A stretch of 64,000 nucleotides of DNA from NCBI GenBank assembly GCA_965220375.1, contig OZ244824.1, positions 1,864,406-1,928,405 on the forward strand. The letters are read 5' to 3'. A model generated the notes under the pieces. The model saw only the letters and a list, made by a program, of their open reading frames with translations. It had not been told where the DNA came from and ran no database searches. Source of the stretch: Dehalococcoidia bacterium (GTDB lineage Bacteria; Chloroflexota; Dehalococcoidia; Lucifugimonadales; JAGWBF01). Shown here piece after piece: positions 31,473 to 64,000 of the stretch. The position numbers and the translations under genes were made by a program. How positions within the stretch are numbered: position 1 is the first letter of the stretch; each line of letters starts with the position of its first letter.

Positions 31473-34400
31473 GACCTGCCCCGCCTCTTCCGGCTACGTC
31501 GAGCTTCATGCCAAGAGCTTCTATTCCTTTGGCATGGGAGCGTCCCACACCCATGAGCTGCTGGCCCAAGCCAAGGAGTACGCTTACCCGGCCTTGGCCC
31601 TGACCGATGTGAACCTCTGCGGGGCGTTGGAGTTCGCGAGGCTTGCCGGCAGCTTGGAAGTTGGACCAATCACCGGCGGCGAGATCACCCTGGATGATGG
31701 CTCGAGGGTCACCCTCCTGGCTGAGACGCCGGCCGGCTATTCCAACATCTCCCGCCTGTTCACCCTTGCCAATGCTGTGGACCGCAGGGAGCCGAAGCTC
31801 GATCCCATCCACCTGTCGGAGCACTCCCAGGGGGTCATTCTGCTGGCGGGGGGACGGCACGGGCAGCTCTCCCGGTTGGCGGCCGGAGGCCGTCCGGGGG
31901 AGGCCCGCGGGCTTCTGAAAAGGTACATGGACTGGTATGGGCCAGGATCGGTGTACGTCGAGCTTCAGCGCAACTTCCTACAGGGAGACGCCGTGCGCAA
32001 CCGGGAGCTGCTGAAGCTTGCCAGGGACGCCGGCGCACCGGTGGTTGCCACCAACGATGTTCATTATCATCATCCAAAGCGCTGTCGGCTCCAGCATGCG
32101 CTGGCGGCTGCGAAGCTCAACACCACCATCGATCGGGCTTTGCCCCATATCTGTCCCAACGATCATCTTTGCTTGAAGCCCCAAGGGGAGATGGTGAGAC
32201 TCTTCGCCGATTGCCCGGAAGCTGTCTCCAACACCCTCCGCATCGCTGAGCGTTGCACCTTCAACCTCAGCAAAGACCTTGGCTACTCGCTGCCCGAGCC
32301 GGCGGTGCCCGGTGAGTACACCCCTGACAGCTTTTTGCAAAGGCTGTGCTATGAAGCTGCTGCCCGGCGGTACGAAGGCGTTGTGCCCCGGCGGGTTGAG
32401 GAGCGCCTCCAAGAAGAGTTCGGGCTGATCGAGAGGCTTAACCTGGCGGGCTTCCTGTTGCTCTATAGAGAGATCGTTATGATAGCCCAGCGGATCATGG
32501 AGGAGCGCGGCCTGACAAGCCCGGAGACGCCGTTGGAGGAGAAGCCTCCCGGACGGGGTCGCGGCTCTTCGGTGGCGCTGCTGGTCGGATACCTCATCGG
32601 CGTCAGCCACGTGGACCCCCTGAGGTGGGACCTCACCTTGGAGCGGTTCATATCCGAAGACATGAAGATGTTGCCGGACATCGACCTGGACTTTCCTCGA
32701 GGTCTCAGGGATGAGCTTATCGAGAGGGTGCACCGCCACTTCGGCCCGGAGTACGCTGTGCTGGCTGGGGCTATCGCCACCTACAGCGTGAAGGGAATCA
32801 TCCAGGATCTGGGCAAAGCCCTGGGGCTTCCCCAGGAGCAGCTTAGCCTGCTCTCCAAGCGGCTCCACTCCCACGACGCAGCCGACCTGCGGGCGGAGAT
32901 GACGGAGCTGCCGGGCTTTCGAGACAAGGTGAATGCCCCGGGGTGGCGCGACCTGCTGGACCTCGCTCCTCAGCTGATGGATGCCCCCAAGGGATTGGGC
33001 CAGCATATCGGCGGCTTGGTGCTTAGCTGTTCTCCCATTCCCAGGATGGTCCCCATAAGGGCAAGCGCTATGGATGGCCGGTTCATAATGGACTGGAACA
33101 AGGACAGCGTGGCTGATGCCGGGTTTGCTAAGATCGATATTCTCTCTCTGCCGGTGCTGGACCAGATAGAAGAAGCGCTAGACCTAGTGGAGGCAAGGGA
33201 GGGCGTACGACCGGACTTGAGCACGATAGACCCGGAGGACCCCAGCGTGTACGACATGATAAACGAGGGCATGTCCAAGGGGGTCTTTCTGCTCCAATCG
33301 CCAGCGCAGCTGAAGATGGGTCAGAGGTTGAGGTCACGCAACCTGCTGGACCTGGCCTACCAGGTTGCGCTTATCCGGCCCGGAGTGGGCACCCAGGGCA
33401 GTGCGGTGTCCCAGTTCGTCGAGCGATACAGGCGGGGGGCGGAATGGGAGTACGACCATCCCCTGGAAAGACGGGCCCTGGAGCGGGGCTACGGGGTCAT
33501 CGTTTGGCAGGAACAGGTTGTGCAGCTCATACAGGATGTGGCGGATATGACGGCGGCGGAGGCCGACGAGGTCCGCCGCGCCTTTGCCAAGCCCAACAGT
33601 GGGCACCTTATCGCCATGCACTGGCGGAGATTCCTGGAGGGCGCGCGACGAAAGGGCATCTCCGAGGAGACCGCAAAGAAGATATTCGGCAAGATCAATG
33701 GCCACTACATGTTCCCGGAGTCCCACTCCCATGCCTTCGCCGTCACCGCTTACCAGGCTGCATGGCTCAAGCGCTACTACCCGTTGGAGTTTTTCATCGC
33801 CCTGATGAACAACCAGCCGATGGGGTTCTACCCGATGGAGACGCTGAAACAGGATGCCCGGCGCTTCGGTGTTCCTTTCCTGAATCCCTGTGTAAACAGA
33901 AGCCGGGCGATGTGCGCCCCCGAAGAGAACTCGGTACGCCTGGGTCTCCGGTTTATCGAAGATATTGGGTCGGAATCGGCGAAGCTAATCGTGGAAGAGA
34001 GGGGGCGTGGGGGCCCCTATGCAAGCGGGAGCGACCTTGTGCAACGGACGGGGGTAAAGCCTCTGGCGGTGCGCTCGCTGGTGATGGCCGGAGCCTTTGA
34101 CAGCATTACGAAAAACCGCAGGGAGGCCCTGTGGGAGGCGGGTCTCCACCTTCGTCCGATGAAGAAGGGACAGATGGTGCTGCCCATATCTACGGAGGAC
34201 AGCGTGCCGGAGATGAGGGACTTCTCCGATGTTGAGAAGATGCGATGGGAGTACGCGACAATGGGGGTCTATCCCAGGGGACACCTGATGGAGTTTGTGC
34301 GACCCAGCCTGGACCGCAATGTGCTGGCCACTGCGGAGATGGAACAATGCGGAGAAGCTGAAGAGATTATCGTTGCCGGCTGGCCGGTGGCAAGGCAACA

Positions 34401-34632
34401 CCCTCGCGGGCGAGATGGCACGGTGTTTGTGACCATCGAGGATGAAACGGGCGATGCCCAGGTAATCATTTGGCGCGACCTGTTCGCCAAACATCGCAGG
34501 GAGCTGGCGAGCCAGGTGATCCAGGTGGCGGGTTACGTATCCCGGTGGGATGGCATGACCAACGTGATAGCGACGGATGTGAAAGCCATCCCTTCAGGCG
34601 TTGCCATGCCGCCCTCCCACGACTGGCGTTAA
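31465..34632 (+). CDS. dnaE2: error-prone DNA polymerase III alpha-like subunit
   Basis: PHP domain start YVELHAKSFYSFGMGAS. Pol III alpha motifs DIDLDF, GKALG, GLGQHIGG, FAKIDILSL, YQVALIRPG, YGVIVWQEQV, ESHSHAF. OB-fold tail. GTG 31465 overlaps the imuB stop (GTGGATGA); the ORF-track start 31336 would overlap imuB by 137 nt. Confidence 0.85.
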   Translation: MDETCPASSGYVELHAKSFYSFGMGASHTHELLAQAKEYAYPALALTDVNLCGALEFARLAGSLEVGPITGGEITLDDGSRVTLLAETPAGYSNISRLFTLANAVDRREPKLDPIHLSEHSQGVILLAGGRHGQLSRLAAGGRPGEARGLLKRYMDWYGPGSVYVELQRNFLQGDAVRNRELLKLARDAGAPVVATNDVHYHHPKRCRLQHALAAAKLNTTIDRALPHICPNDHLCLKPQGEMVRLFADCPEAVSNTLRIAERCTFNLSKDLGYSLPEPAVPGEYTPDSFLQRLCYEAAARRYEGVVPRRVEERLQEEFGLIERLNLAGFLLLYREIVMIAQRIMEERGLTSPETPLEEKPPGRGRGSSVALLVGYLIGVSHVDPLRWDLTLERFISEDMKMLPDIDLDFPRGLRDELIERVHRHFGPEYAVLAGAIATYSVKGIIQDLGKALGLPQEQLSLLSKRLHSHDAADLRAEMTELPGFRDKVNAPGWRDLLDLAPQLMDAPKGLGQHIGGLVLSCSPIPRMVPIRASAMDGRFIMDWNKDSVADAGFAKIDILSLPVLDQIEEALDLVEAREGVRPDLSTIDPEDPSVYDMINEGMSKGVFLLQSPAQLKMGQRLRSRNLLDLAYQVALIRPGVGTQGSAVSQFVERYRRGAEWEYDHPLERRALERGYGVIVWQEQVVQLIQDVADMTAAEADEVRRAFAKPNSGHLIAMHWRRFLEGARRKGISEETAKKIFGKINGHYMFPESHSHAFAVTAYQAAWLKRYYPLEFFIALMNNQPMGFYPMETLKQDARRFGVPFLNPCVNRSRAMCAPEENSVRLGLRFIEDIGSESAKLIVEERGRGGPYASGSDLVQRTGVKPLAVRSLVMAGAFDSITKNRREALWEAGLHLRPMKKGQMVLPISTEDSVPEMRDFSDVEKMRWEYATMGVYPRGHLMEFVRPSLDRNVLATAEMEQCGEAEEIIVAGWPVARQHPRGRDGTVFVTIEDETGDAQVIIWRDLFAKHRRELASQVIQVAGYVSRWDGMTNVIATDVKAIPSGVAMPPSHDWR

Positions 34633-38203: not shown

Positions 38204-38302
38204 CTTGGGATAGCTTCAGCCTGCGTATCGGTGTAAAATACGCCTTCAACTCTCTATTTCTTGAGATGGGTCCGAGTCCAACATATCTCGAAAGAGTGGA
38301 TC

Positions 38303-40066
38303 ATGACTACTTTCATGGGACAAGAGACCACCATAAAGACCGAAGTAGGTGTGGCGGTCCCGATGCGGGATGGTGTCGTCCTGCACGCTGATGTCTATCG
38401 TCCGGAATCCGATGCTAAGCGTCCAGTCCTTTTACAACGTACACCATATAACAAGAATATGCCCCCAGCGCGGACAGCCGCCTTAGATGCCCTTAGAGCA
38501 GCATCCCACGGGTACGCTGTGGTGGTCCAGGACACCAGGGGCAGGTACTCCTCCGGTGGAGAGTTTTATCCTTTCCGGCACGAGATCGAGGATGGGTACG
38601 ATACGGTGGAGTGGTGTGCATCCCAGCCCTGGAGCACGGGAAAGGTGGGAATGTTCGGGCGCTCCTACGTAGGCGCCACTCAATGGTTGGCTGCCTTGAG
38701 CGGTCACCCAGCCCTGGCCGCTATTGCTCCCGGGCTGACCGCCTCGGACTACCACGAAGGCTGGACGTACCAGGGTGGAGCTATGGCATGGGGGTTTGCC
38801 GTCTCCTGGACTCTCAGCGCCTTGACCATGGCCAATCTTGGCAACATATCCCGGAACAACGATGTCCCGGCGGGCACCCGTGAAAGGCTCTTGGAAGCTA
38901 TAGACAATATGGAGGAGAGTTTCAAATTCCTCCCCCCAAAGGACTTCCCTCATCTCCAGGGGGGACTTGCCGACTATTTCTACGATTGGATAGCCCACAA
39001 CCGGCCCGACGACTATTGGGGCCATTGGAGGATCGAAGACCATCATCGGCGTCTGAACGTGGCTGTATTCAACATCGCTGGATGGCACGATATATTCTTG
39101 AAGGGCAGCTTGCGTAACTTCCGCGGAATGAGGGAAGAGGGGGCAACCGAAGATGTCCGCTCCAAGCAGAGGCTGATTGTCGGGCCCTGGCACCACGCCA
39201 CGCCCGGCCCCGAGGTTTCCGGAGAGGTCTATTTTGGCTTGATGGCGAGCGATGTTGCGGTGGACATGAACGCACAGCATCTACGCTTCTTTGATCGATG
39301 GTTGAAGGGGACCGAAAACAACCTGGAGTCCGAGCCTCCGGTGCGTATCTTCGTTATGGGGGAAAACCGCTGGCGGGATGAAAACGAATGGCCCTTGGAG
39401 CGCACCCAGTACATCCCGTACTACCTCCATAGCGAAGGCCGAGCCAACGAGGCTTCCGGGGATGGCTCATTGTCCACGATGGCGTGCGGGTCTGAACCGC
39501 CGGACGTCTATGTGTACGACCCCAGGTGTCCCGTCCCGACAAGGGGAGGCGGGCTTTGCTGTTCTAATGGCTTCTTGCCAGGAGGAGCCTTCGACCAAGG
39601 GGAGATCGAATCAAGACCAGACGTGCTGGTCTTTACCTCTTCTCCCATGACGTCAAGCATGGAGGTCACAGGCCCAGTTTCCCTAGTGCTGTACGCATCC
39701 AGCTCTGCCGTTGACACCGATTTCACAGCCAAGCTTGTGGATGTTGCTCCCTGCGGATGTGCCCGGAACTTGACCGATGGCATAATCAGGGCCCGTTACC
39801 GGGACTCATTGTCCGAACCGAGCTTCATCGAACCGGGCAAGGTCTATAAGTACGAGGTCGATCTTGTGGCCACGAGCAACGTGTTTTTGCCCGGACATAG
39901 TATTCGGCTTGAGGTATCCAGCAGCAACTTTCCCCGCTTTGACCGCAATCCCAACACAGGGGGCGAACCTTCGGAGGAAGCTGAGCTAAAGCCCGCCCTC
40001 CAGACCATTGTTCACGATGCCCAGCGGCCTTCACACTTGGTGATGCCGGTGATCCCCAGGGAGTGA
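38303..40066 (+). CDS. CocE/NonD family hydrolase (X-Pro dipeptidyl-peptidase S15-like)
   Basis: ORF 38261..40066, with ATG 38303 preferred. Motifs MRDGVVLHADVYRP, PVLLQRTPYNK, GMFGRSYVG (nucleophile Ser). The C-terminal beta-sandwich ends with ..SSSNFPRFDRNPNTG. Confidence 0.85.
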   Translation: MTTFMGQETTIKTEVGVAVPMRDGVVLHADVYRPESDAKRPVLLQRTPYNKNMPPARTAALDALRAASHGYAVVVQDTRGRYSSGGEFYPFRHEIEDGYDTVEWCASQPWSTGKVGMFGRSYVGATQWLAALSGHPALAAIAPGLTASDYHEGWTYQGGAMAWGFAVSWTLSALTMANLGNISRNNDVPAGTRERLLEAIDNMEESFKFLPPKDFPHLQGGLADYFYDWIAHNRPDDYWGHWRIEDHHRRLNVAVFNIAGWHDIFLKGSLRNFRGMREEGATEDVRSKQRLIVGPWHHATPGPEVSGEVYFGLMASDVAVDMNAQHLRFFDRWLKGTENNLESEPPVRIFVMGENRWRDENEWPLERTQYIPYYLHSEGRANEASGDGSLSTMACGSEPPDVYVYDPRCPVPTRGGGLCCSNGFLPGGAFDQGEIESRPDVLVFTSSPMTSSMEVTGPVSLVLYASSSAVDTDFTAKLVDVAPCGCARNLTDGIIRARYRDSLSEPSFIEPGKVYKYEVDLVATSNVFLPGHSIRLEVSSSNFPRFDRNPNTGGEPSEEAELKPALQTIVHDAQRPSHLVMPVIPRE

Positions 40067-51667: not shown

Positions 51668-54271
51668 CTAGCCACACTTGTTCCAGCCGCAGGAGGCGCA
51701 CAGCAGGCAGCCCTCCTGGTATGCCACGGGCGCATTGCAGTCCGGGCACCGGGTGCGGGGCATGCTCCCCGACAGGTCCCAGGCTTGGCGCTTGTCCGTC
51801 GCTGCAAACAGCTTCAGCTGGGAGCCGTCTATAGGCTCGTGGTTCACCGCCGCCGAGACCCTGCGCTCCAGGGCCAGCGCCACAGCATCGGGGGCCGAGC
51901 GCACCAGGGTGCCGTTGTCCCATGCCGGGCAGCAGGTGATCCCCTTGAGCTGGCTGACCACCTCCCGGATGTCCACTCCCGAGCGCAGGGCCAGCGACAC
52001 CAGCCGGGATATAGCCTCAAGCTGGGCCGAATCGCACCCGCCCGCCTTGCCCAGGGTGGAGAACACCTCGAAGGGCATCTGGCTCTCATCGAAGTTGATG
52101 GTGATGTACATCGTCCCGTGCCCCGTCTTCACCCGCTCGGTGATGCCCTGCATCTCCGCCGGACGCTCCCTCGGGGAGAGGGTGCTGCCTGTGCCGGCGG
52201 CGTCCTCAACCTCCGGCTCGCTGTGGGTCTCGCCCGTGCTCAGCACCTGGTTCTCCTTGCTCCCGTCCCGGTATATGGTTATCCCCTTGCAGCCCATCTT
52301 GTACGCAAGGGTGTAGGCGTCCGCTATATCTTCCTTGGTGGCGTCATGGGGAAAGTTGATGGTCTTGGACACCGCGTTGTCCGTGTGTTTCTGGAATGCA
52401 GCCTGCATCCTCACGTGCCACTCGGGGCTGATGTCGTGGGAGGTTGCGAACAGCTCTTTGACCCAGCCGGGCACCGCCCCATTCATCTCGTGCAGGCTGC
52501 CCTTGTGGGCCAGCTCCTCCATCAGCTCCATGGAGTAGAAGCCCTCGTGCTTGGCCACAGCCTCGAAGATGGAGTTGCCCTCCACCAGCAGCGTGTTGTC
52601 CATCACGTTGCGCACATAGCTCAGGGCAAACAGGGGCTCTATCCCGCTGGAGCAGCCCGCGATGATGCTGATGGTCCCCGTGGGCGCTATGGTCGTCGGC
52701 GCCGAGTTGCGCATCCTGGGGCCGTCCGGCCGGTCATATATGCTCCCCGGCCATGCGGGGAACGTCCCCCGTCTCTCCGCCAGCTCCGCCGAAGCTTGGT
52801 GGGCCTTGTGTCGGATGAAGGTCATTATCTCCTCGGCCACACCCAGGGCGGCCTCCGAGGCGTATGGAACACCCAGCTGGATCAGCAGGTCGGCAAAGCC
52901 CATGACCCCCAGCCCTATGCGCCGGGTCTTCTTGCTCATATCTTCGATGGCAGGTATGGGATAGTCGTTCATGTCGATGACGTTTTCCAGGGTATGAACG
53001 GCCACGGAGATCACCCCGTCCATCTTCTCCCAGTCTATGCCGATGCCGTCGCCTGTGCTGCGCACCATCTGGGACAGGTTCACCGATCCCAGGTTGCACG
53101 ACTCATAGGGGAGCAGGGGCTGCTCTCCGCAGGGGTTGGTGCTCTCGATGACACCCAGCTTCGGCGTCGGATTGTCCCTGTTGATGCGGTCCAGGAAGAC
53201 TATGCCCGGGTCCCCCGTCTTCCACGCCATCTCCACCAGCAGCTCGAACACCTCCCGGGCGTTCAGCCGCCCCTCGACCCTGCCGTTGCGGGGATTCACC
53301 AGGTCGTACTCCTCGTCCTTGTCCACCTTGCCCATGAACTCTTCGGTGACGGCGACGGAGATGTTGAAGTTGGAGATGCTGTGCCCGTCCTCCTTGGAGG
53401 TTATGAACCTGAGGATATCCGGGTGGTTCACCCGCAGGATGCCCATGTTGGCGCCCCGCCGGGTGGAACCCTGCTTCACAGCCTCGGTGGCCCCGTCGAA
53501 GGCCCGCATGAAGCTCACCGGGCCGCTGGCGACACCGCCCGTGGAACCCACGATGTCCCCCTCGGGCCGCAGGCGGCTGAAGGCGAAGCCCGTGCCCCCG
53601 CCGCTCTTCTGCACCAGGGTCGCCTGCTTCACCGTCTCGAAGATCGCCTCCATGGAGTCCTCGACGGGCAGGACGAAGCAGGCGGAGAGCATCTGCAGCT
53701 CCCTGCCGGCGTTCATCAGCGTCGGTGAGTTGGGAAGGTAGTCAAGGGATGCCATCGCCCGGTAGAACCCTTCCTCGGTGGCCTGCACCTCTTCTTCCGT
53801 GGCCCCGTACAGCCGGTCCGCCTGGGCCAGGTTGTGGGCCACCCGCCTGAACATCTCGTCGGGCTTCTCGATGACCTTCCCCTCCCGGTCCTTGGCCAGG
53901 TAGCGACGCTCCAGCACCACCCGGGAGTTCTCGCTCATGCTCCGGGCGCTTGCGACCATCTCTTCCAGGTCGCCCGAAGCCTCCAGGGCCCTCTTCACCC
54001 GGCTCCGCACTTCCGCTGTGCTTGGACTATAACCATGTTCCGCGCCTGGACTATGACCATGCTCCGCGCCAGGACTGTTCCCATGCTCCGCGCCAGGACT
54101 GTTCCCATGCTCCGTGCCAGGACTGTTCCCATGCTCCGTGCCTGGGCTATGACTATGTTCCGTGCCAGGAATGTTCCCATGTTCCGTGCCTGGACTGTTC
54201 CCATGTTCCGCGCCAGGACTGTTCCCATGTTCTGTGCCAGGACTATAACCATGTTCGATATTGGCCGTCAT
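51668..54271 (-). CDS. nrdJ: adenosylcobalamin-dependent (class II) ribonucleotide reductase with an N-terminal octapeptide-repeat extension
   Basis: RNR motifs SENSRVVLERRYL, NSPTLMNAG, SACFV, GGGTGFAFSRLRP, NPCGEQPL..YESCNLGS, TIAPTGT. C-terminal zinc ribbon CPDCNAPV...CLLCASCGWNKC. ATG 54271 has a GGAG RBS 5 nt upstream. Residues 6-85 are ten (T/A)EHGNSPG repeats. Confidence 0.9.
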   Translation of the reverse strand: MTANIEHGYSPGTEHGNSPGAEHGNSPGTEHGNIPGTEHSHSPGTEHGNSPGTEHGNSPGAEHGNSPGAEHGHSPGAEHGYSPSTAEVRSRVKRALEASGDLEEMVASARSMSENSRVVLERRYLAKDREGKVIEKPDEMFRRVAHNLAQADRLYGATEEEVQATEEGFYRAMASLDYLPNSPTLMNAGRELQMLSACFVLPVEDSMEAIFETVKQATLVQKSGGGTGFAFSRLRPEGDIVGSTGGVASGPVSFMRAFDGATEAVKQGSTRRGANMGILRVNHPDILRFITSKEDGHSISNFNISVAVTEEFMGKVDKDEEYDLVNPRNGRVEGRLNAREVFELLVEMAWKTGDPGIVFLDRINRDNPTPKLGVIESTNPCGEQPLLPYESCNLGSVNLSQMVRSTGDGIGIDWEKMDGVISVAVHTLENVIDMNDYPIPAIEDMSKKTRRIGLGVMGFADLLIQLGVPYASEAALGVAEEIMTFIRHKAHQASAELAERRGTFPAWPGSIYDRPDGPRMRNSAPTTIAPTGTISIIAGCSSGIEPLFALSYVRNVMDNTLLVEGNSIFEAVAKHEGFYSMELMEELAHKGSLHEMNGAVPGWVKELFATSHDISPEWHVRMQAAFQKHTDNAVSKTINFPHDATKEDIADAYTLAYKMGCKGITIYRDGSKENQVLSTGETHSEPEVEDAAGTGSTLSPRERPAEMQGITERVKTGHGTMYITINFDESQMPFEVFSTLGKAGGCDSAQLEAISRLVSLALRSGVDIREVVSQLKGITCCPAWDNGTLVRSAPDAVALALERRVSAAVNHEPIDGSQLKLFAATDKRQAWDLSGSMPRTRCPDCNAPVAYQEGCLLCASCGWNKCG
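54017..54256 (-). repeat. 10 x 24-bp in-frame tandem repeat at the nrdJ 5' end
   Basis: Units such as CGCGCCAGGACTGTTCCCATGCTC (plus strand). All are exactly 24 nt with no indels. They encode EHGYSPGT, EHGNSPGA, EHGNSPGT, EHGNIPGT, EHSHSPGT, EHGNSPGT, EHGNSPGA, EHGNSPGA, EHGHSPGA, EHGYSPST. Confidence 0.95.
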
Positions 54272-54289
54272 TGATACTCCAGTCTCCCC

Positions 54290-55854: not shown

Positions 55855-56165
55855 CCACCCCCTCCCCGTCTCCGTTCGCCCAGCCCCCCTCCGTCCGATC
55901 ATCCTGAGGCCCTCGAAGGACCTGAGGCCCTCGAAGGAGAACGGACAGGGCCGGACACAGCCACCCTCATAATTACCACCCGGTCCGTCCGATCATCCTG
56001 AGGCCCTCGAAGGACCCTTCGACAAGCTCAGGACAGGGCCGGACCCAGCCACCCTCATAATTACCACCCGGTCCGTCCGATCATCCTGAGGCCCTCGAAG
56101 GACCTGAGGCCCTCGAAGGACCTGAGGCCCTCGAAGGGGAACGGACAGGGCCGGGCACAGCCGGA
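55855..56165. repeat. repeat island A2 between the nrdR start and its NrdR-box promoter
   Basis: Three copies of CCGTCCGATCATCCTGAGGCCCTCGAAGGACC... modules. CCACCCTCATAATTACCACCCGGTCCGTCCGATCATCCTGAGGCCCTCGAAGGA occurs at about 55961 and 56050. Confidence 0.85.
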
Positions 56166-56199
56166 AGGCCAGCCACCTTTGGATTCAGGGCTATGTTCA

Positions 56200-56246
56200 G
56201 CACTATATGTTGTGTTGGCACAAAACAAAACCACAATATTTCGTAT
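56200..56246. promoter_or_regulatory. tandem NrdR boxes
   Basis: Box 1 is gCACTATATGTTGTGt (56200-56215) and box 2 is cCACAATATTTCGTAt (56231-56246). Both resemble the acaCwAtATaTwGtgt NrdR consensus. Their centres are about 31 bp apart (three helical turns), and they lie just downstream of the minus-strand promoter. Confidence 0.55.
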
Positions 56247-56257
56247 AGCGGGCTATG

Positions 56258-56287
56258 ATTATTGGCAAATGTTCAGCCAATTGTCAA
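56258..56287 (-). promoter_or_regulatory. putative sigma70 promoter driving nrdR (and possibly nrdJ)
   Basis: On the minus strand: TTGACA (56287-56282), 18-nt spacer, AATAAT (56263-56258). It sits in a locally AT-richer unique segment between repeat islands. Confidence 0.45.
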
Positions 56288-56329
56288 GCGCCAAGAGTCC
56301 GAACTTTCACCCCATTTCCTCCCCATTCC

Positions 56330-57150
56330 CGCCCGCATTGAGCCAGCTCCCCTTCCGTTCGCCCACCCTCCCCTATGTTCGTTCGCCCTGAGGCTCTCGA
56401 AGGGCGTGTCCTGAGCCGCGTCCCCGGCCCTGTCCTGAGCCGGGGCGAAGGATCCTTCGACAAGCTCAGGACGAACGGGGCGTGTACGCAGCGAGCGAGG
56501 GGGTGTACGCAGCGAGCGGGGGGCCTCCCCCCTGGGCCCTCCCCCCGGCCCGGCGCTCAGCCCGTCCCCATCCCCGTTCCCCCACCCTCCCCCACCCCCG
56601 TTCGCCCTGAGGCTCTCGAAGGGCGTGTCCTGAGCCGCGTCCCCGGCCCTGTCCTGAGCCGGGGTGAAGGATCCTTCGACAAGCTCAGGACGAACGGAAG
56701 GGGATCCTTAGGGGTAGGCGGGGAGCGGACAGCCGGACCAGGCGAGGGAGCGCTTGAGTTCCCCTCATCCTAACCTTCTCCCACCAGCGGCCCCACCCCC
56801 GTTCGCCCTGAGGCTCTCGAAGGGCGTGTCCTGAGCCGCGTCCCCGGCCCTGTCCTGAGCCTGTCGAAGGGCCTGTCCTGAGCCTGCCCTGAGCCTGTCG
56901 AAGGGCCTAACCTGGCTCTGTGTCCGGCCCTGTCCTGAGCCTGCCCTGAGCCTGCCCTGAGCTTGTCGAAGGGCTTGTCGAAGGCCCTACTCCTGGGCTT
57001 CTGTCCCAGGGGGGCCTTTGCCTAACCTGGCTCTGTGTCTGGCCCTGTCCTGAGCCGCGTCCCCGTTCTCCTTCGACAAGCTCAGGACGAACGGAAGGGA
57101 ATCCTTAGGGGTCGGAGGCGAACGGGTGTGTTTGGACCTGTCCTGAGGCA
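56330..57150. repeat. repeat island A3 (divergent intergenic region between nrdR and the cadherin-like gene)
   Basis: Units of about 215 bp recur at about 56381, 56598 and 56798. Each is CCGTTCGCCCTGAGGCTCTCGAAGGGCGTGTCCTGAGCCGCGTCCCCGGCCCTGTCCTGAGCCGGGG(C/T)GAAGGATCCTTCGACAAGCTCAGGACGAACGG, an inverted pair forming a hairpin of about 100 nt. There are also GTCCTGAGCCTGCCCTGAGC mini-tandems and a 21-bp duplication GTGTACGCAGCGAGCG(A/G)GGGG. Confidence 0.9.
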
Positions 57151-57234
57151 CTCGAAGGAGCGCCCGTTGGTATAATGAACGGGCATGTGTTCGCCCCGGC
57201 GGGAGAATTGGCCCAACTTTGCGCCCTACAGGTC

Positions 57235-57263
57235 TTGAATAGCATATTGACTGATGGTATATA
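57235..57263 (+). promoter_or_regulatory. putative promoter of the cadherin-like/collagen-like operon
   Basis: TTGAAT (57235-57240), 17-nt spacer ending in TGG (extended -10), TATATA (57258-57263), in an AT-richer unique segment. This implies a leader of about 470 nt. Confidence 0.4.
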
Positions 57264-57738
57264 CATGGTGTAGAAATACAGGCGGAGCGCATCTGCCTGT
57301 AGTTAGGACAACACAGGTTTGCCAACAGATAGAAAATTGCTGAGACAGGGAATAGTAACCGCACCCAAGGACTACCTTGATATCGTTGCGCCTGCCGGTC
57401 TCCCGGTCCCCTTCGATTTCACTCAGGGCGAATGGGGGGCTAGGCTGGGCAGGAGCGGCGGGTTACGCTGATCATGGAACTTGAAGTGAGAAACGCCTTT
57501 GGCGGCATGGTCCCGCACAGGCCGGCCGGTCCGCCGGGAAGGCCGTGTGCGAGGCTGCGCACGTTTCTTTCGAGAAGCCTCTTTCGGGAATGCCGTCAAC
57601 GCTTTGGAAGGTGCTTACCTGGGGGAGGGGAGATGGTATCGAACAGAAGCCCTTAGTCCATAGCTTACAAGCTTTCTTAGAGATACACGCGGACGCGTGG
57701 TGCACAAGGAAATCCAGTACATAGGAGAGGTGTGCAAT

Positions 57739-60700
57739 ATGGATACAATTTTCAAGGGCTTGGCAAACAAGTGGATGGTACTGGCCCTGCTCCTGGTTGC
57801 GCTGGGAGCGGTGCTGACTATCACCCTGCTGCCCGCCGGGGCGCAGAACGGCGGCGATGCCATCGAGTTCCCGGAAAACAGTGACGAAACCATAGCCTAC
57901 TTCACTGCGGTGGACCCCGAGGGCGGGACGGCCAGTTGGGCTAATGATCCTTTGTCCGGGACCGACGAGGGCGCTTTCAACTTCGACAAGGATACGGGTG
58001 CGCTGAGCTTCAAGAGCGAGCCCGACTTCGAGTCCCCAACGGACGAAGATGGGACGTCCCCGTCCACAGCCGAGGCCGGGGACAACATCTACGAGGTGGT
58101 CTTGACGGCGACCGACGGCACCGCGACGATGACCGAGGTTGTCATGGTTAAGGTCACCAACGAGAACGAGAAGGCGACGACCGTGCTAGAGCTGTCGCTG
58201 GTGCAGCCTCGGGAGGGAGACTTCATAACCGTCGTGTACGCCGACAAAGTGGGGAACCCCTACGTGGATGCTGCCGGCGTAGAAAACACATCCATCGTGG
58301 ACCCCGACGGAGACAAAGGGGAAGTTCCTCCCATAAATGCAGAGGATGCTAATGCAGCCAAGATGAACATTACCGAGATGGATGATACCGAGGATCCTCC
58401 TGTCGAGTTGGTGACCTGGCAGTGGTACCGTGGGTCGAGCCGGGCTGGACCTTGGACGGAGATTCCTGGGCCCAACGCCAAGAAGAAGAGCTACGATGTT
58501 GTGGACGACGACAAGGACAAATACCTGATGGTGGTCGCGACATACGAAGACGCACACGGGCCGAACAAGATGCTGGAAGCGGTTTCCAAGTACCCCACCA
58601 TTAAGCTGGTGGCTGACTATAAGACCCCCGTGTTCCCCGACTTTGATCCAAGCACTAGCCCCACCCCCATAGATGGGCCGACCGAGGAGGTCGCCGACGG
58701 GACAACAGGTCAGGCGAATGTAGGAAGCCTGGTGCTTGCCAGCGGTGACACGATCGAGCGAGGGGAGCGGCCCACCTACTACCTGGTGGCGACCGACGAT
58801 TCCCTACCACATGCCGACATGTTCCAGATTGATCGGGCTACCGGCCAGGTTAAGGTGGGCATAGGCAAGACGCTGAATCCGGCGAGCGATTCGGGAAGAC
58901 CAGCAAGCGATCAACTAGCCAACCCAGGTGCGCCAGTTGGTGGATACATGGTCACCATCAAGATCAACGACGGCAAGGACGACTACGATGCAGTTGGCCG
59001 CGTCGAACGCACAGTCGGAACAGTCCCCGACGCCGAATATGATAGCTCGACGTCCATGACGATTACGGTGACCGAGGAGGATGAGGCCCCGATATTCACC
59101 ATGGGTGAGACGGCCTATGACTACTCCGAGAATAAGCGGGAAGCCGATGACAGCGCCGATGACCTTAATGTGGCCAACTTTGTGGCCTACGACCCCGAAG
59201 GAGATGCTCCGGCTATCACCCTGTCCGGCCCGGATGTGCGCAAGTTCGCTACCGAGGGAGCTACCAACGTTCTGACCGACGGTACGACTCCCGGTGCTCT
59301 GAGCTTCGTTGCTAGCACCCCGCGAGTTGCTGGCGACCAGCCGGACTTTGAGAATCCGGAGGATGCGAACGAGGACGGGGTGTACGAAGTAACGGTGACC
59401 GCAACCTCGGGTTCGAAGACCAACCCCCTAAGCGTGAGGGTGACGGTGACAAACGCTCAGGACCCAGGAGAGGTGTCCTTGAGCGCGAGACAGCCGAGGA
59501 TCGGGGTGCCGATAAGCGCAATGGTTGTCTCGGACGAAGACGGCGACGTGAGCGGGCTGCGGTGGCAGTGGTCGGCAACCAGAGAACTTCCAGATGATTG
59601 TTTGGCCGCCACTCTTGAGGCCCTTAATGACGACGAGGAAAATCCCAGGTGGCAAACTGCGAAGGGTGATGGGACGAGGACGGCCACCTACACTCCGCAG
59701 ACCGCCGACGATGGCAAGTGCCTGAGGGCGACGGCGATGTACACCGATCCGGCAGGGTCTACGAACACCGCCGAAGTGTCGGCTCTACGGGCCGAGAAGG
59801 CGCGGAACCTGTCGCCGATGTTCATGGACGAAAACGATGATGCGGATGGCATCCAGATCAAGACGAGGTACGTGATCGAGCCTTCGGGTGCAGGCGAAGA
59901 TGTTGAGATTACTGCAAACATAGATGAGGGCAGGCAGGTCGTCGCAGGTCGTGATGGTGCCGTCAGCACTGCAGACGCAGACCCCAACGCCGACCGAATA
60001 GTCGCCACAGACCTCCTCGACGAGGAGACGGCGGACGACGACGCCATAGAGTACAGCCTGAGCGGGGCCGACGCGAGGTACTTCAATATTTACTCCGTTG
60101 CAGAGCATTCCGTAGACGACCCCTTTGATTCTACGGACACCACTCAGACAACCAACGCCGGCCAGATATGGGTGAAGCCTGGGGTGAACCTGGACTTTGA
60201 GACCCGGCGCACATACAGGGTCATGGTCACGGCCAAGGACCTTGCTGACGACGATGAGTCGAGGAACGACCCGTCGGTATGGGTGGAGATCAAGGTTGTG
60301 AACGCCGAGGAGCCGCCGGAGATCATGCGGGGCAGGCTGGCAGTGGAAGGCGTGCCTCTGGTTGAGCACGACAGCATGAGCACGGACGACGTGGGCGAGT
60401 ACAGGGCTGTAGGCGTGGACGCGCCTGGTGCCGAGTGGAGCCTGTCGGGTGCCGACATGGATGACTTCAGCATCAGCGCGGGCGGTGTCCTGACCTTCAA
60501 CAACCCGCCCAACATCAACAACTCGATGGACGACAACAATGACAACGTTTACATGGTTACGGTCGTGGCCACCAACGGCGACAGCATAGATTCCCTGGAT
60601 GTCACAGTCACCGTCGGAAGGGCGGCTGAAGCCGCCCCAGACCCGACCTCGCTGGACGATTTCGACCCCGATCAGAGGTTCGACCTCAACGGTGACGGGA

Positions 60701-60765
60701 CAGTGGATGATAGTGAGGTCAGGGCGGTCCTCAGGGAGTACTTCGCGGACAATCCAGGCAACTAG
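57739..60765 (+). CDS. secreted cadherin-repeat protein with a C-terminal EF-hand/dockerin-like Ca-binding module
   Basis: ORF 57697..60765, with ATG 57739 preferred (AGGAGAGG RBS). Signal peptide MDTIFKGLANKWMVLALLLVALGAVLTITLLPAGAQ. Repeated cadherin-like modules end in PDFE(S/N)P.D..(D/N)..Y(E/M)V.(L/V)TAT.G (FESPTDEDG..IYEVVLTATDG, FENPEDANEDGVYEVTVTATSG, NNSMDDNNDNVYMVTVVATNG, LDFETRRTYRVMVTAKD). The C-terminus has DLNGDGTVDDSE. Confidence 0.8.
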   Translation: MDTIFKGLANKWMVLALLLVALGAVLTITLLPAGAQNGGDAIEFPENSDETIAYFTAVDPEGGTASWANDPLSGTDEGAFNFDKDTGALSFKSEPDFESPTDEDGTSPSTAEAGDNIYEVVLTATDGTATMTEVVMVKVTNENEKATTVLELSLVQPREGDFITVVYADKVGNPYVDAAGVENTSIVDPDGDKGEVPPINAEDANAAKMNITEMDDTEDPPVELVTWQWYRGSSRAGPWTEIPGPNAKKKSYDVVDDDKDKYLMVVATYEDAHGPNKMLEAVSKYPTIKLVADYKTPVFPDFDPSTSPTPIDGPTEEVADGTTGQANVGSLVLASGDTIERGERPTYYLVATDDSLPHADMFQIDRATGQVKVGIGKTLNPASDSGRPASDQLANPGAPVGGYMVTIKINDGKDDYDAVGRVERTVGTVPDAEYDSSTSMTITVTEEDEAPIFTMGETAYDYSENKREADDSADDLNVANFVAYDPEGDAPAITLSGPDVRKFATEGATNVLTDGTTPGALSFVASTPRVAGDQPDFENPEDANEDGVYEVTVTATSGSKTNPLSVRVTVTNAQDPGEVSLSARQPRIGVPISAMVVSDEDGDVSGLRWQWSATRELPDDCLAATLEALNDDEENPRWQTAKGDGTRTATYTPQTADDGKCLRATAMYTDPAGSTNTAEVSALRAEKARNLSPMFMDENDDADGIQIKTRYVIEPSGAGEDVEITANIDEGRQVVAGRDGAVSTADADPNADRIVATDLLDEETADDDAIEYSLSGADARYFNIYSVAEHSVDDPFDSTDTTQTTNAGQIWVKPGVNLDFETRRTYRVMVTAKDLADDDESRNDPSVWVEIKVVNAEEPPEIMRGRLAVEGVPLVEHDSMSTDDVGEYRAVGVDAPGAEWSLSGADMDDFSISAGGVLTFNNPPNINNSMDDNNDNVYMVTVVATNGDSIDSLDVTVTVGRAAEAAPDPTSLDDFDPDQRFDLNGDGTVDDSEVRAVLREYFADNPGN

Positions 60766-60812
60766 CCCCAAGAGCGGATGTGTGACGGATACACAGATGA
60801 GGAGGAAGCAGA

Positions 60813-61817
60813 TTGGTTAGGAGCATAACAAAACTACCACCGCTCTTGTTGGCAGCCCTCGTGGCGCTGGGGCTGGTCATGGCGGTCGGGCTCTGGCTTC
60901 CGGGCCAAGCCGGCGCGCAAGCAAACATGAACGAAAGGTCCTTCAACGCAACGGAGGTTATGCCTGGGGCAGAGGTGATGGTCACCATCGAGCACACCAT
61001 AGGCAGTGGTATGGGGGGGCAGATAGTAGAGAACCTGCCCCCGGGATTCGAGTACGTGGCGGAATCGGCTACCAGCGCCGACGAACCGGTAATCAGCGGG
61101 TCGGTGACCACGGGGCGGACGCTCACATTCACCCTGTTCAATGAGCCGGACCCCGTCAGCTATACGGTGACGGCCTCCGACGAGGAGATCGCCCATACCT
61201 TTGAGGGCAGCGTAAGTGTCTTCGGCGGGGAGGGCGGCGATATCGGCGGCGCTGCCGAAGTGACCGTCGCGGCCGATGCGCCGGAAGTCACTCCCACCGA
61301 AGAACCCGGCCCTATGAATACCCCTACCCCCGCTGGGCCTCGTGGACCTCGCGGTCGGACGGGGGACACGGGTGACACCGGGCCCCAAGGTGAGCAGGGT
61401 ATCCAGGGCGTTCCCGGACCCCCAGGCAACCCCGGAGCCTCCGGCATGGCCGGAGCCCCCGGTGAACCCGGAGCCCAGGGCGAACAGGGTATCCAGGGCG
61501 AACCGGGAGCCAAGGGTGACCCGGGCGACAACGGCGATCCGGGCGAGCCAGGAGCCATGGGTGACCCAGGTGAAGCGGGAGCCAAGGGCGACCCCGGCGA
61601 CCCGGGGGCCAAGGGCGACCAGGGATCCCAGGGTGACCCTGGAGATGACGGCGACCAAGGCGCCAAGGGCGATACCGGCGCCAAGGGTGATGCCGGCGAT
61701 GTCGGCCCCGAAGGAGCCTCTGGAGGCGCCGGACTGGGCATCATCGCGCTGATCATCGCCATCGTGGCGGTGGTCGTAGCAGGTGGAGGCGTGTTCCTCG
61801 CCAACTCCCGTCGCTAG
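60813..61817 (+). CDS. membrane-anchored collagen-triple-helix-repeat surface protein
   Basis: TTG start preceded by a GAGGAGGA RBS. Signal peptide ..LVMAVGLWLPGQAGAQA. N-terminal globular domain of about 130 aa (..IVENLPPGFEYV..). Pro/Thr linker. About 44 uninterrupted G-X-Y triplets. C-terminal TM helix LGIIALIIAIVAVVVAGGGVFLA followed by NSRR. Confidence 0.85.
   Translation: MVRSITKLPPLLLAALVALGLVMAVGLWLPGQAGAQANMNERSFNATEVMPGAEVMVTIEHTIGSGMGGQIVENLPPGFEYVAESATSADEPVISGSVTTGRTLTFTLFNEPDPVSYTVTASDEEIAHTFEGSVSVFGGEGGDIGGAAEVTVAADAPEVTPTEEPGPMNTPTPAGPRGPRGRTGDTGDTGPQGEQGIQGVPGPPGNPGASGMAGAPGEPGAQGEQGIQGEPGAKGDPGDNGDPGEPGAMGDPGEAGAKGDPGDPGAKGDQGSQGDPGDDGDQGAKGDTGAKGDAGDVGPEGASGGAGLGIIALIIAIVAVVVAGGGVFLANSRR
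61335..61730 (+). repeat. collagen-like G-X-Y coding repeat (about 44 triplets)
   Basis: GPRGPRGRTGDTGDTGPQGEQGIQGVPGPPGNPGASG....GAKGDAGDVGPEGASGGAG has Gly at every third residue without interruption. Confidence 0.95.
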
Positions 61818-61837
61818 CGCAATAGCATAGACTAAGT

Positions 61838-63345
61838 AGTCAGACACGGGCTGGTGGACGTAATCCGCCAGCCCGTGTCCGTTCGCGGGAACAGACCCCC
61901 GTTCGTCCTGAGCTTGTCGAAGGACCCTTCGCCCCGGCTCACGACAGGGCCGGACACAGACCTAAGGACCCCCCCCCCCCGTTCGCCCTGAGGCCCTCGA
62001 AGGGTAGCGGGAACAAAATCCCGTTCGTCCTGAGCTTGTCGAAGGAGAGCGGAGGGAACCCGGAAGGACAGATGGGAACAGATACTAAGTAATCAGACAC
62101 GGGCTGGTGGACACAACCACCAGCCCGTCGCCTTCCCCCCCGCATCCCCCGTCTGCGGGAACAGAGCCCCGTTCGCCCACCCCCCATTTCCCCGTTCGCC
62201 CTGAGGCCCTCGAAGGGGAAGGATGGGGGGGAATTAATGAAAGTCCGTTCGTCCTGAGCTTGTCGAAGGGTAGCGGACAGGCCGGACACAGACCTAAGGA
62301 TCCCCTTCCGTTCGCCCCGTCCCCATTTCCCCGTTCGTCCTGAGCTTGTCGAAGGACCCTTCGCCCTAGCTCACGACAGGGCCGGACACAGACCTAAGGA
62401 CCCCCCCCCCGTTCGCCCCGCCCCATTTCCCCGTTCCCTGCCTACCCCTCCGTTCGCCCACCCCACATAGTCCGTTCGCCCCGTCCCCATTTCCCCGTTC
62501 GTCCTGAGCTTGTCGAAGGACCCTTCGCCCCGGCTCAGGGCAGGGCCGGACACAGACCTGCCCGTCAGCTTCTCGGTGTCCTCCGTTGCTGCTTCGAGTG
62601 CCTCAGCACGAACGGAGGCCTACGCCCCAGGGTTAGGCAAAGGTCTGCGGTGTCCGCCGTTCCCCACCCCCTATTTCCCCGTTCGTCCTGAGGCCCTCGA
62701 AGGGGAAGGATGGGGGGAATTAATGAAAGTCCGTTCGTCCTGAGCTTGTCGAAGGAGAACGGACAGGCCGGACACAGACCTAAGGACCCCCTCCGTTCGC
62801 CCTGAGGCCCTCGAAGGGGACAGGGCCGGACACAGGAGCAAGGTAATCAGACACGGGCTGGTGGACACAATCCGCCAGCCCGTGTCCGTTCGTGGGAACA
62901 GAGCCCCGTTCGCCCACCCCCCATTTCCCCGTTCGTCCTGAGCTTGTCGAAGGATCCTTCGCCCCGGCTCAGACCTGCCCTTCGGCTTCGCGTGGGGCCC
63001 CCGTTCTGCTTCGAGGGCCTCAGGGCGAACGGAGGACGTGCGCCCCAGGGTTAGGCAAAGGTCTGCGGTGTCCGCCGTTCCCCTTTTGCCCCGGCTGTGT
63101 GTCCGCCCACCCCCCCACTGCTGTGACCGTTCGCCCTCCCCTCTCCGTTCGTCCTGAGCTTGTCGAAGGACCCTTCGACCCGGCTCACGACAGGGCTGGA
63201 CACAGACCTAAGGATCCCCTTCCGTCCACCCCCTCCCCCCATTTCCGTTCGCCCACCTACCCCTCCGTTCGCCCTCCCCACATAGTCCGCTCGCCCTCCC
63301 CCATTTCCCCGTTCGTCCTGAGCTTGTCGAAGGAGAACGGAGAGT
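61838..63345. repeat. repeat island B between the collagen-like gene and the GIY-YIG gene
   Basis: More than 25 CCGTTCG heptamers. There are many copies of CCGTTCGTCCTGAGCTTGTCGAAGGACCCTTCGCCCCGGCTCA(C/G)GACAGGGCCGGACACAGACCTAAGGA, CCCCATTTCCCCGTTCG, GTTGCTGCTTCGAG(T/G)GCCTCAG(C/G)(A/G)CGAACGGAGG and GCCCCAGGGTTAGGCAAAGGTCTGCGGTGTCCGCCGTTCCCC in shuffled order. Poly-C tracts lie at 61969-61980 and 62401-62410. Confidence 0.9.
61843..61879 (+). terminator. 12-bp-stem hairpin after the collagen-like gene (terminator-like, no U-tract); first of three copies
   Basis: GACACGGGCTGG, 13 nt, CCAGCCCGTGTC. The same module with its 5' flank (T)AAGTAATCA recurs at about 62096-62130 and 62850-62886. Confidence 0.45.
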
Positions 63346-63379
63346 GGCCAGAGCTGGAGATGATATACTCTGCTCCAAC

Positions 63380-63676
63380 ATGCCCTTTTGGATGTACATA
63401 CTTCGTTGCGCTAACGGCTCATATTACACTGGCCATACCGATGCCTTGGAGCGTCGGATCGCCGAGCATGAGTCGGGGGCATACGCAGGGTACGTATCAA
63501 GGAGACGCCCTGTAACCTTGGCATTTGCCCAGGAGTTCTCCACGCGAGAAGAGGCTTTGGCCGCAGAAAGTCGGGTGAAGGGATGGTCTCGCCCCAAGAA
63601 AGAGGCGCTCATGCGAGGGGACTGGCAGGCGTTGGTTGCCCTGTCGGGGCGACGCACTCCCGAGGGGCTAGCCTAG
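63380..63676 (+). CDS. GIY-YIG nuclease superfamily protein (small YhbQ/UPF0213-like)
   Basis: ORF 63344..63676, with ATG 63380 preferred. MPFWMYILRCANGSYYTGHTDALERRIAEHESG...RRPVTLAFAQEF.TREEALAAESRVKGWSRPKKEAL is the canonical single-domain GIY-YIG pattern. Confidence 0.85.
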   Translation: MPFWMYILRCANGSYYTGHTDALERRIAEHESGAYAGYVSRRRPVTLAFAQEFSTREEALAAESRVKGWSRPKKEALMRGDWQALVALSGRRTPEGLA

Positions 63677-63689
63677 ACGTCCATCGCAT

Positions 63690-64000
63690 ACGGGATTGCC
63701 CCATGTCCGTTCCTCATTCGACTCGGCGGTGTCCGTTCGCCCCCTCCCCATATTCCTGTTGGCCCCTCCACGCGGCTGTGTCCGTTCGTCCTGAGCTTGT
63801 CGAAGGACCCTTCGCCCCGGCTCAGAACAGGGCCGGATACACGCCAGGCCCTTCGAGGTAGCTCGGACATGCCCTTCGGCTTCCCGGTGTCCTCCGTTGC
63901 TGCTTCGAGTGCCTCAGCACGAACGGAGGACGATGGACCTGGGGGCCGTCTCAAGACATGCCCCTACTCCCCCTCCGTTCGTCTTTTCACGCGGCTATGT
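63690..64000. repeat. repeat island C (continues beyond the right edge)
   Basis: The same modules recur: GTCCGTTCGTCCTGAGCTTGTCGAAGGACCCTTCGCCCCGGCTCAGAACAGGGCCGGATACAC and GTTGCTGCTTCGAGTGCCTCAGCACGAACGGAGG. Confidence 0.85.

Follow-up and report, generated by a model that had tools for sequence, protein, structure and literature searches.

A secreted cadherin-like protein and its collagen-stalked membrane partner, a candidate two-part surface structure of sponge-associated Dehalococcoidia

We analysed a stretch of 64,000 nucleotides (nt) from the genome of an uncultured, sponge-associated Dehalococcoidia bacterium (contig OZ244824.1 of assembly GCA_965220375.1; hereafter the window) and concentrated on a two-gene operon near its 3′ end (57739-61817, + strand), in which the gene for a secreted cadherin-like protein (gene 1) is followed by the gene for a membrane protein with a head domain and a collagen-like stalk (gene 2). 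The two genes stay together in relatives, they are bridged by RNA contigs, and the body of gene 1 is replaced by divergent alleles between strains that are otherwise nearly identical. On balance, we think that the two products probably form a calcium-dependent, non-covalently assembled two-part surface structure (coat or adhesin), in which a short EF-hand tail on the gene 1 protein would dock on the head of the gene 2 protein.

Gene structure and domain content of the pair

Gene 1 (57739-60765, + strand) runs from an ATG at 57739, preceded 8 nt upstream by GGAGAGG, to a TAG at 60763-60765. Residues 1-35 (57739-57843, + strand) read as a hydrophobic signal peptide that ends in PAGA followed by Q; the A-x-A rule predicts a cut after A-G-A, and this segment is kept across 20 orthologues. 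A hydrophobic segment is absent from the C-terminus as judged from the sequence, and the open reading frame (ORF), its ribosome-binding site, the Pfam matches, the homologues, the AlphaFold2 and Foldseek results, and the composition agree on a secreted protein of 1008 amino acids without a membrane anchor of its own, which is how an earlier note, made from the letters alone, had described it. The protein is highly acidic (D+E 193 vs. K+R 68), and 308 homologues were found.

Scanned as a whole, the gene 1 protein matched Pfam Cadherin (PF00028) with 45.9 bits, coming from two stretches, against a cut-off of 28.8; single cadherin domains scored alone reached 25 and 18 bits, under that cut-off. 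The AlphaFold2 model is all-beta, with about seven globular domains and a mean predicted local distance difference test (pLDDT) of 67.5, and its best PDB matches in Foldseek were cadherin ectodomains with multiple extracellular cadherin (EC) repeats (E 8e-20 to 1e-11), among them protocadherin 8.1 EC1-6 (E 8e-20), desmoglein and N-cadherin. Two motifs of the type found in cadherin inter-domain linkers, VTxxDExPxF and LDFETRRTY, are invariant in 20 gene 1 orthologues. About five of the seven globular domains are cadherin-like; residues ~146-295 and 576-690 form beta-sandwiches of another type, which we call ‘WQW’ and for which no Pfam match was found. The description of gene 1 as a chain of cadherin-like repeats therefore stands for most of the protein and fails for these two domains. 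Likewise, the modules are ‘eukaryote-like’ in fold and motifs and not in origin: the homologues are all bacterial, the guanine-cytosine content equals that of the neighbourhood, and a recent eukaryotic origin is unsupported.

The protein ends in a tail (60619-60762, + strand) composed of a linker, an EF-hand loop and an amphipathic helix, which we propose as the docking module. The loop (DLNGDGTVDDSE, 60682-60717) is a canonical 12-residue EF-hand loop that fits the pattern D-x-[DN]-x-[DN]-G-x-[ILV]-x-x-x-E exactly, is kept in 19 of 19 full-length gene 1 orthologues and would be expected to bind calcium; it leads into a helix that closes the chain (...RFDLNGDGTVDDSEVRAVLREYFADNPGN; residues 991-1004 in the AlphaFold2 model). 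The isolated tail scored 20-21 bits against Pfam EF-hand_1, _5 and _6 (cut-offs 25-26), as one hand and not a pair. Other tails have a longer form, YDANDNGxIDRxEVIxAINDYLFG, a spacer of 8-12 residues and then EVIxLINLYLFG, in which the second loop is degenerate; a profile of 26 such long-form tails retrieved EF-hand proteins only among its best 60 PDB matches (E 1e-9 to 1e-5), including secretagogin, GCAP3 and ALG-2 (E 1e-9 to 1e-6). By its sequence, the tail is EF-hand-like and not a dockerin.

Gene 2 follows after an intergenic gap (60766-60812, + strand) of exactly 47 nt, which carries the strong ribosome-binding site GAGGAGG (60799-60805), ending 7 nt before the TTG start at 60813. The gene (60813-61817, + strand) encodes a type I membrane protein of 334 amino acids, as supported by its ORF, a Pfam Collagen match and a six-way orthologue alignment. 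Its parts come in the order signal peptide, head, Pro/Thr linker (PEVTPTEEPGPMNTPTPA), collagen-like stalk, membrane helix and NSRR. The signal peptide ends in GQAGAQA, and the AGAQ that it has in common with that of gene 1 corresponds to an A-x-A signal-peptidase site plus Gln. Both the spacing and this anatomy agree with the earlier note, including its approximately 44 G-X-Y triplets: 45 were counted, 43 of them preceding the hydrophobic stretch.

The collagen-like region (61335-61739, + strand; residues 175-309) consists of these 45 unbroken triplets, with Asp in 15 of the 45 X positions and Pro in 13 of the 45 Y positions, and matched Pfam Collagen (PF01391) with E 1e-21 and 76.9 bits against a cut-off of 27.2, so that cadherin and collagen domains alike were found above their Pfam cut-offs. 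A collagen triple helix rises by 0.286 nm per residue, and the stalk, if wound into one, would be ~37 nm long. It runs into a predicted C-terminal membrane helix (61734-61814, + strand; GLGIIALIIAIVAVVVAGGGVFLA), after which NSRR would lie in the cytoplasm. Known C-terminal sorting signals were rejected: none of the models for exosortase, archaeosortase or rhombosortase substrates (PEP-CTERM, PGF-CTERM, GlyGly-CTERM and others) exceeded its cut-off on the C-terminus of gene 2 (best, GPS-CTERM with 13.3 bits vs. a cut-off of 28), the sequence holds no LPXTG, and the LPXTG_anchor model found no match at the C-terminus. Matches of gene 2 to the Scl, Lcl and HxsA families of NCBIfam were also set aside, since they are far under cut-off and caused by G-X-Y composition; NF038329 and NF038330 (Scl1/Scl2 type) gave 67.2 bits (Scl2/SclB; cut-off 325) and 63.4 bits (cut-off 400), from the collagen part only. 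The Pfam and NCBIfam scans returned no S-layer family. Long minus-strand ORFs over gene 2 (e.g. 60834-61847) were discarded as shadow ORFs of the GC-rich collagen repeat.

The gene 2 head (60915-61283, + strand; about residues 38-157) is probably a divergent DUF11-like domain, whose fold may be weakly cohesin-like, and it is our proposed receptor for the EF-hand tail. AlphaFold2 modelled it as a nine-strand beta-sandwich of ~120 residues (pLDDT 90.4). Its Foldseek matches in the PDB are all modest and include the CLIPPER adhesin domain (E 5e-5); cohesins make up about 20 of the top 50 (E 1e-4 to 2e-3; template-modelling (TM) score 0.47-0.6; root-mean-square deviation 5-7 Å). The head of the window itself is too diverged to match Pfam, and the family assignment comes from its relatives: three canonical heads scored 27.0, 24.2 and 16.3 bits against Pfam DUF11 (PF01345/TIGR01451; cut-off 24.6), PF01345 is precomputed for many matches of the head family, and a hidden Markov model (HMM) of six heads from the clade of the window scored canonical copies at E 1e-180 to 1e-15.

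Conserved pairing and transcription

Among related loci (designated L001 and so on), a gene for 312-356 amino acids follows gene 1 after a gap of 47-50 nt in L001, L002, L004, L005, L006, L009 and L010, over a range of gene 1 identity from 79% to 40%; the partner genes in these orthologous loci have the same architecture, always a TTG start, and 40-54 G-X-Y triplets. L003 holds the same gene pair on a frameshifted contig of 3x coverage. Co-occurrence of the two genes, on which the earlier note had staked its pairing, was thus found in every orthologous locus examined, 47-50 nt apart and down to 40% identity.

The pairing extends beyond these orthologues. With the head HMM, the ORF just downstream of a cadherin-like gene was found to hold one to nine tandem heads in ~20 further Dehalococcoidia loci (nine in L059; four in L012, L013, L022, L050, L054 and L065). 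In most of the complete partners the chain closes with a membrane helix and a basic tail. The collagen stalk is one of several stalk types: it was seen again in L013 (67 triplets) and L022 (28 triplets), and other partners use Pro/Thr linkers. The cadherin-like proteins encoded upstream in these loci are 1000-2350 amino acids long and carry the long-form tail at their end. Counting complete ORFs with room downstream, and including L003, L004 and L026 although the search pattern had missed them, about 29 of 34 assessable Dehalococcoidia loci with a tail-bearing protein have a head-domain gene next door, compared with 0 of ~22 for cadherin-like proteins that anchor themselves by a C-terminal hydrophobic segment (Fisher p ~2e-11, a value inflated by the common descent of the loci).

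Some proteins combine head and tail in a single chain: L050 gene 2, L060, P0177, P0241 and P0250. L050 (5800-15118) encodes in succession a cadherin-like protein with a tail (1560 amino acids), a protein with four heads and a tail (674 amino acids) and one with four heads that is anchored in the membrane (713 amino acids), a layout that may be likened to the hierarchy of adaptor and anchoring scaffoldins in cellulosomes. The head family itself is large: among 1.84 billion representative proteins it comprised 2455 clusters, 804 of them at E 1e-30, and among the best 150 representatives 67 end in a membrane helix with a basic tail, 10 have collagen and 10 end in an EF-hand tail. A single-sequence search with the N-terminal 174 amino acids of gene 2 returned four proteins (a limit of the word index), and a query by HMM and alignment returned hundreds. 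One protein of the representative library, P0284, has 4832 amino acids and 31 stretches matching the head-domain profile.

Two further arrangements were seen in the same survey. A second class of Dehalococcoidia cadherin-like giants, 1700-3400 amino acids long, ends in a hydrophobic segment of the form ‘..LLIALLLDVTVALSAGxxLQRxTFRR’ (L024, L027, L029, L032-L035, L039, L041, L044, L045, L048, L051, L055, L064, L071 and L072); they lack the EF-hand tail, and no head-domain gene follows them. Three-gene variants (L026, L028, L030, L069, L015 and L025) begin with a cadherin-like protein with a tail, followed by a protein of 840-1110 amino acids with one N-terminal head and many immunoglobulin-like domains, which ends in ..CxNEGxENEDCWNQISIP in four of the loci and similarly in L015. 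Their third gene encodes ~230-290 amino acids, in which a Met-rich head is joined to 24-34 G-X-Y triplets and a membrane helix; collagen-on-membrane stalks therefore carry at least two kinds of head.

The locus is transcribed. Four metatranscriptomes labelled ‘sponge metagenome’ hold contigs 85-99% like the locus, and two of these RNA contigs span the 3′ end of gene 1, the gap and gene 2 (X7 record 12, 1338 nt; X9 record 27, 1029 nt). No terminator-like site was found in the 47-nt gap, and these observations support the co-transcription that the name operon implies. Over 44-64 kb, contig depth, a rough guide to expression that pools related lineages sharing the segment, was highest among protein-coding bins in the bin of the gene 2 collagen and membrane helix (29-69 vs. 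0-11).

Upstream of gene 1 lies a conserved 5′ leader (57194-57738, + strand) with an invariant 11-bp hairpin (CCTCTTTCGGG / CCTGGGGGAGG). RNA contigs cover it from 57367, and its last ~270 nt (57470-57738) are conserved across two sub-clades. It contains a terminator-like stem (57544-57563), and an alignment with folding gave three compensatory pairs only; a role as regulatory RNA is possible. A scan for sigma-70 promoters found no site.

Strain-level replacement at a conserved site

We found the locus to be core, at the same site in all close relatives, and at the same time hypervariable. Among the window, L002, L003 and L004, nrdR is 98.3-99.3% identical in DNA and 100% in protein, and the ribonucleotide reductase gene is 95-98% identical in DNA; identity of the gene 1 protein to that of the window falls to 74% in L002, ~44% in L003 and 48% in L004. 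The variation is concentrated in a core of the cassette (57923-60316, + strand), which in conspecific strains is replaced by alleles too divergent for blastn: for L004 the stretch without detected similarity is 57923-60316 and for L003 it is 57923-60747, and sliding-window identity over the core was 31-73%. The two ends are conserved. The leader is 94-99% identical to L002, L003 and L004, leader and signal peptide together (57194-57923) are at least 94% identical, and the segment for collagen and membrane helix (61473-61800) is 96-97% identical between strains; the collagen part of gene 2 is 93% identical to L002 and L004 and 50% identical to L001.

These results indicate allele replacement by recombination between conserved ends, with the leader as the upstream anchor, in strains that co-exist (L003 and L004 come from the same sample). 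The parts exchanged are the exposed ones, the body of gene 1 and to a lesser degree the head; replacement of this kind is typical of surface structures selected by phages or the host, and points to such selection here. The gene 1 closest to that of the window (79%) is found in L001, whose genomic context differs and whose similarity to the window, at 82% in DNA, is confined to 57572-61000. The earlier note had suspected an accessory or recombination-prone locus: the first is contradicted by its presence in all close relatives, and the second is borne out by the replacement of alleles between strains.

Short interspersed repeats with a shared core flank the operon on both sides, in an upstream island (55897-57092) and a downstream island (61825-63943). 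The 23-nt core, GTTCGYCCTGAGSYYBTCGAAGG, has 24 copies, all at 55897-57092 and 61901-63806, where none would be expected by chance, and none occurs elsewhere in the 64 kb; the operon is thus bracketed by repeats as the earlier note had stated. The core sits in larger repeat families of 55-125 nt, whose downstream copies are almost all on the + strand, and the operon of L003 is flanked by the same repeats. The islands were rejected as a known RNA family, as Rfam gave no match. A gene with a GIY-YIG nuclease domain (63344-63676; 110 amino acids) is enclosed in the downstream island, and in L006 a GIY-YIG gene likewise lies downstream of the operon.

The genes around the operon (M17 aminopeptidase, DegV, P5C reductase, PdxA, class II ribonucleotide reductase and NrdR) have housekeeping functions; since the site is also conserved in relatives, a mobile island was rejected. 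When the gene 1 orthologue alignment was run against one genome per species, nearly all matches were labelled ‘MAG: Dehalococcoidia bacterium’ (MAG, metagenome-assembled genome), and the same scan listed the sponge-specific taxa Ca. Poriferisodalis and Ca. Spongiisociaceae. Together with the sponge metatranscriptomes, this agrees with the host-associated lifestyle that had been supposed from the eukaryote-like modules. The genomes of the closest relatives measure 2.3-2.6 Mb.

Elsewhere in the window, an ImuB-like (IMS family) gene followed by a DnaE2-type paralogue of the DNA polymerase III alpha subunit (30024-34632) makes up the usual error-prone polymerase cassette. An X-Pro dipeptidyl-peptidase of the S15 family (38261-40066) may have a role in the use of proline-rich, collagen-derived peptides in the sponge. 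A 24-nt unit is repeated nine times in tandem at 53970-54280, at the 5′ end of the long ORF with the class II ribonucleotide reductase; because the Pfam domains begin at residue 112, the true start of that gene may lie 3′ of the repeat.

Proposed assembly, rival explanations and known systems

We reasoned that the gene 2 product would be exported and anchored to the cytoplasmic membrane by its C-terminal helix, NSRR facing the cytoplasm, and that the G-X-Y triplets of three chains would wind, without hydroxyproline, into a collagen-type triple helix of the length given above, holding three DUF11-like heads away from the cell. The gene 1 product would be exported as an acidic rod of ~970 residues, with seven mostly cadherin-like beta-sandwich domains and no anchor, and its calcium-loaded tail would dock on the gene 2 head. 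The cell would then be coated with cadherin-like rods on collagen stalks, in a manner comparable to a dockerin on a cohesin or to the SlaA canopy on SlaB, and the outward parts would be exchanged by homologous recombination through the ends formed by leader and signal peptide on one side and collagen and membrane helix on the other. Such a structure may fasten the bacterium to other cells or the sponge matrix, shield it as an outer coat, or do both.

Several observations weigh against this assembly, in which docking of the tail on the head is predicted from genomic context. The layout may resemble that of cohesin and dockerin, and membership fails on sequence: the Cohesin HMM did not match the head, Dockerin families did not match five tails at E up to 10, and no dockerin was among the best 60 PDB matches of the 26-tail profile. 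The best TM scores of the head, 0.70-0.73, were to the C-domains of streptococcal AgI/II proteins, above those to cohesins. In the clade of the window the tail is shortened to one loop and one helix, compared with two helices in the long form. No head gene was detected behind five of the tail-bearing proteins, and the presence of head and tail in one chain (P0177 and P0241) could mean that both are generic modules with other partners. Pro stands mostly in the Y position, with no known hydroxylase, which puts the predicted stability of the triple helix in doubt. Finally, the RNA contigs belong to related strains and not to this exact genome, and DNA carry-over is possible.

A serious rival, which we nonetheless hold to be unlikely, is that the pair is mainly a two-component S-layer, with gene 1 forming a calcium-dependent lattice and gene 2 trimers serving as pillars that set a pseudo-periplasmic space. 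Strain-level replacement is typical of S-layer genes and was seen here, the S-layer proteins SbsB and Sap appeared at ranks 35-45 of the gene 1 structural matches, RNA depth was relatively high, one locus per genome was seen in the clade of the window, and relatives have ftsZ-ftsA a few kb away from the operon. The layout of gene 2 is SlaB-like (signal, beta-sandwich head or heads, trimeric stalk and C-terminal membrane helix), and it comes with a large, beta-rich secreted partner (PMC6911244). The class also includes lineages that lack peptidoglycan: Dehalococcoides has none and has an S-layer-like wall, and the dcw genes are lost in Dehalococcoidales and SAR202 (PMC10608941). On the other side, the scaffolds of relatives with four to nine heads, and the adaptors, are easier to reconcile with a display scaffold than with a lattice pillar, two or three loci occur in several genomes (e.g. 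L026, L030 and L069 on one contig), and lattice formation is here a candidate drawn from analogy. An S-layer would also overlap with the assembly that we favour, as the mechanism of assembly would be the same and the role alone would differ.

It is quite improbable, in our judgement, that the two proteins do not bind each other at all. Gene 2 would then be a stand-alone ‘lollipop’ adhesin of the Scl type, possibly acting on the sponge collagen matrix, and gene 1 would be released or otherwise retained, its tail serving folding, calcium sensing or another surface component. Gene 2 does have the head-collagen-anchor order of Scl1 and Scl2 (PMC8968730), with weak NCBIfam Scl/Lcl matches from its collagen part; the tail is by sequence an ordinary EF-hand, head and tail can share one polypeptide, and tail proteins without an adjacent head partner do occur, in five cases. 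However, the complementary pattern, in which a protein has either a tail and a head partner or its own anchor and no partner, is hard to explain without a functional link. The conserved gap length and gene order and the existence of multi-head scaffolds and adaptors also speak against this reading, and gene 1 has no other retention signal. That the reading frames arose as artefacts of repetitive, GC-rich sequence, or are pseudogenes in decay, as the dense flanking repeats and long opposite-strand shadow ORFs might suggest, has next to no likelihood and is refuted by the comparative data, given intact orthologues in at least eight genomes with conserved starts and ribosome-binding sites, hundreds of homologues, significant HMM matches, a confident head model and transcription of the locus.

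Returning to the two-part assembly, we tentatively extend it, at odds that we would put somewhat below even, to a previously unrecognised calcium-dependent display system of Dehalococcoidia, a class with many sponge symbionts and some members that probably lack a wall. Its elements would be an EF-hand ‘plug’, a DUF11-like ‘socket’, anchoring scaffolds with one to nine sockets on Pro/Thr or collagen stalks, adaptor scaffolds, and cadherin-like cargo that forms a recombination-shuffled, strain-specific coat for contact with host or cells and for phage evasion; no sequence kinship to cohesin-dockerin was detected. In the literature, we found no description of the pairing of an EF-hand tail with a DUF11-like partner, of a collagen stalk that continues directly into a membrane helix (not described in the bacterial-collagen review PMC8968730), or of the strain-level cassette behaviour.

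How anchor-less cadherin-domain proteins stay on the cell had not previously been addressed for sponge symbiosis, and the locus offers a testable answer in the form of a membrane-rooted partner gene. The proposed assembly would also provide a first view, at the molecular level, of the outer envelope in uncultured Dehalococcoidia. Strains with 98-99% identity elsewhere differ here by sharp allele replacement, which makes the locus a likely target of phage or host selection and a practical strain marker, and in protein engineering a plug-and-socket pair, if real, would be a module set for surface display.

Several known systems resemble the pair in part. Collagens XIII and XVII, MARCO and SR-A are single-pass membrane proteins whose ectodomain is a collagen triple helix with a distal globular part. 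Gene 2 shares this single-pass format and a collagen-like ectodomain with a distal globular part; however, the animal proteins have the type II topology and are anchored at the N-terminus, whereas gene 2 has a signal peptide and is anchored at the C-terminus (type I), and sequence kinship is limited to G-X-Y. Closer to hand are the bacterial collagens Scl1/Scl2, BclA, Lcl and Bucl, which likewise have an N-terminal globular head, an uninterrupted charged G-X-Y region and a C-terminal anchor (PMC8968730). In contrast to Scl, the collagen of gene 2 runs directly into the membrane helix, with no LPXTG and no wall-spanning repeat region, the head is DUF11-like, a dedicated partner gene is present, and Asp in X and Pro in Y replace the Pro in X and Thr in Y of Scl (PMC8968730).

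Gene 1 belongs to a pool that is already known, as cadherin domains are enriched in the genomes of sponge symbionts (PMC8163846) and its relatives come from Dehalococcoidia MAGs beside sponge-specific taxa. That study counted domains; it describes neither the EF-hand tail and its partner gene nor the collagen stalk and strain-level replacement. With SlaA/SlaB of Sulfolobales, the pair has in common a large, beta-rich secreted protein and a smaller partner with head, stalk and membrane helix, and the trimeric stalk of SlaB keeps SlaA at a distance of tens of nm from the membrane (PMC6911244). The stalk of SlaB is an alpha-helical coiled coil, whereas that of gene 2 is a G-X-Y repeat; the domains belong to unrelated families, the organism here is a bacterium, relatives have multi-head scaffolds, and any lattice of the pair is putative.

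The likeness to cohesin-dockerin lies in the architecture: a cargo with a short C-terminal module of calcium loop and helix, to which long-form tails add a spacer and a second, similar helix, a cell-anchored partner with one to nine tandem beta-sandwich modules, some proteins that hold both module types (L050 gene 2 and P0250), and many cohesins among the fold matches of the head. The two systems differ in that neither Pfam Dockerin nor Cohesin matched and the TM scores to cohesins are modest (0.47-0.6); as the tail profile finds EF-hand proteins, membership by sequence was rejected. They differ as well in that the cargo here is a cadherin-like rod where cellulosomes have an enzyme, anchoring is through a membrane helix, here on a collagen stalk, and not through SLH or sortase, and binding of head and tail is a prediction. 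Cohesin-dockerin pairs are themselves known outside cellulosomes, in archaea and in consortia of ANME, and a use in cell-cell contact has been proposed for them (PMC9012536).

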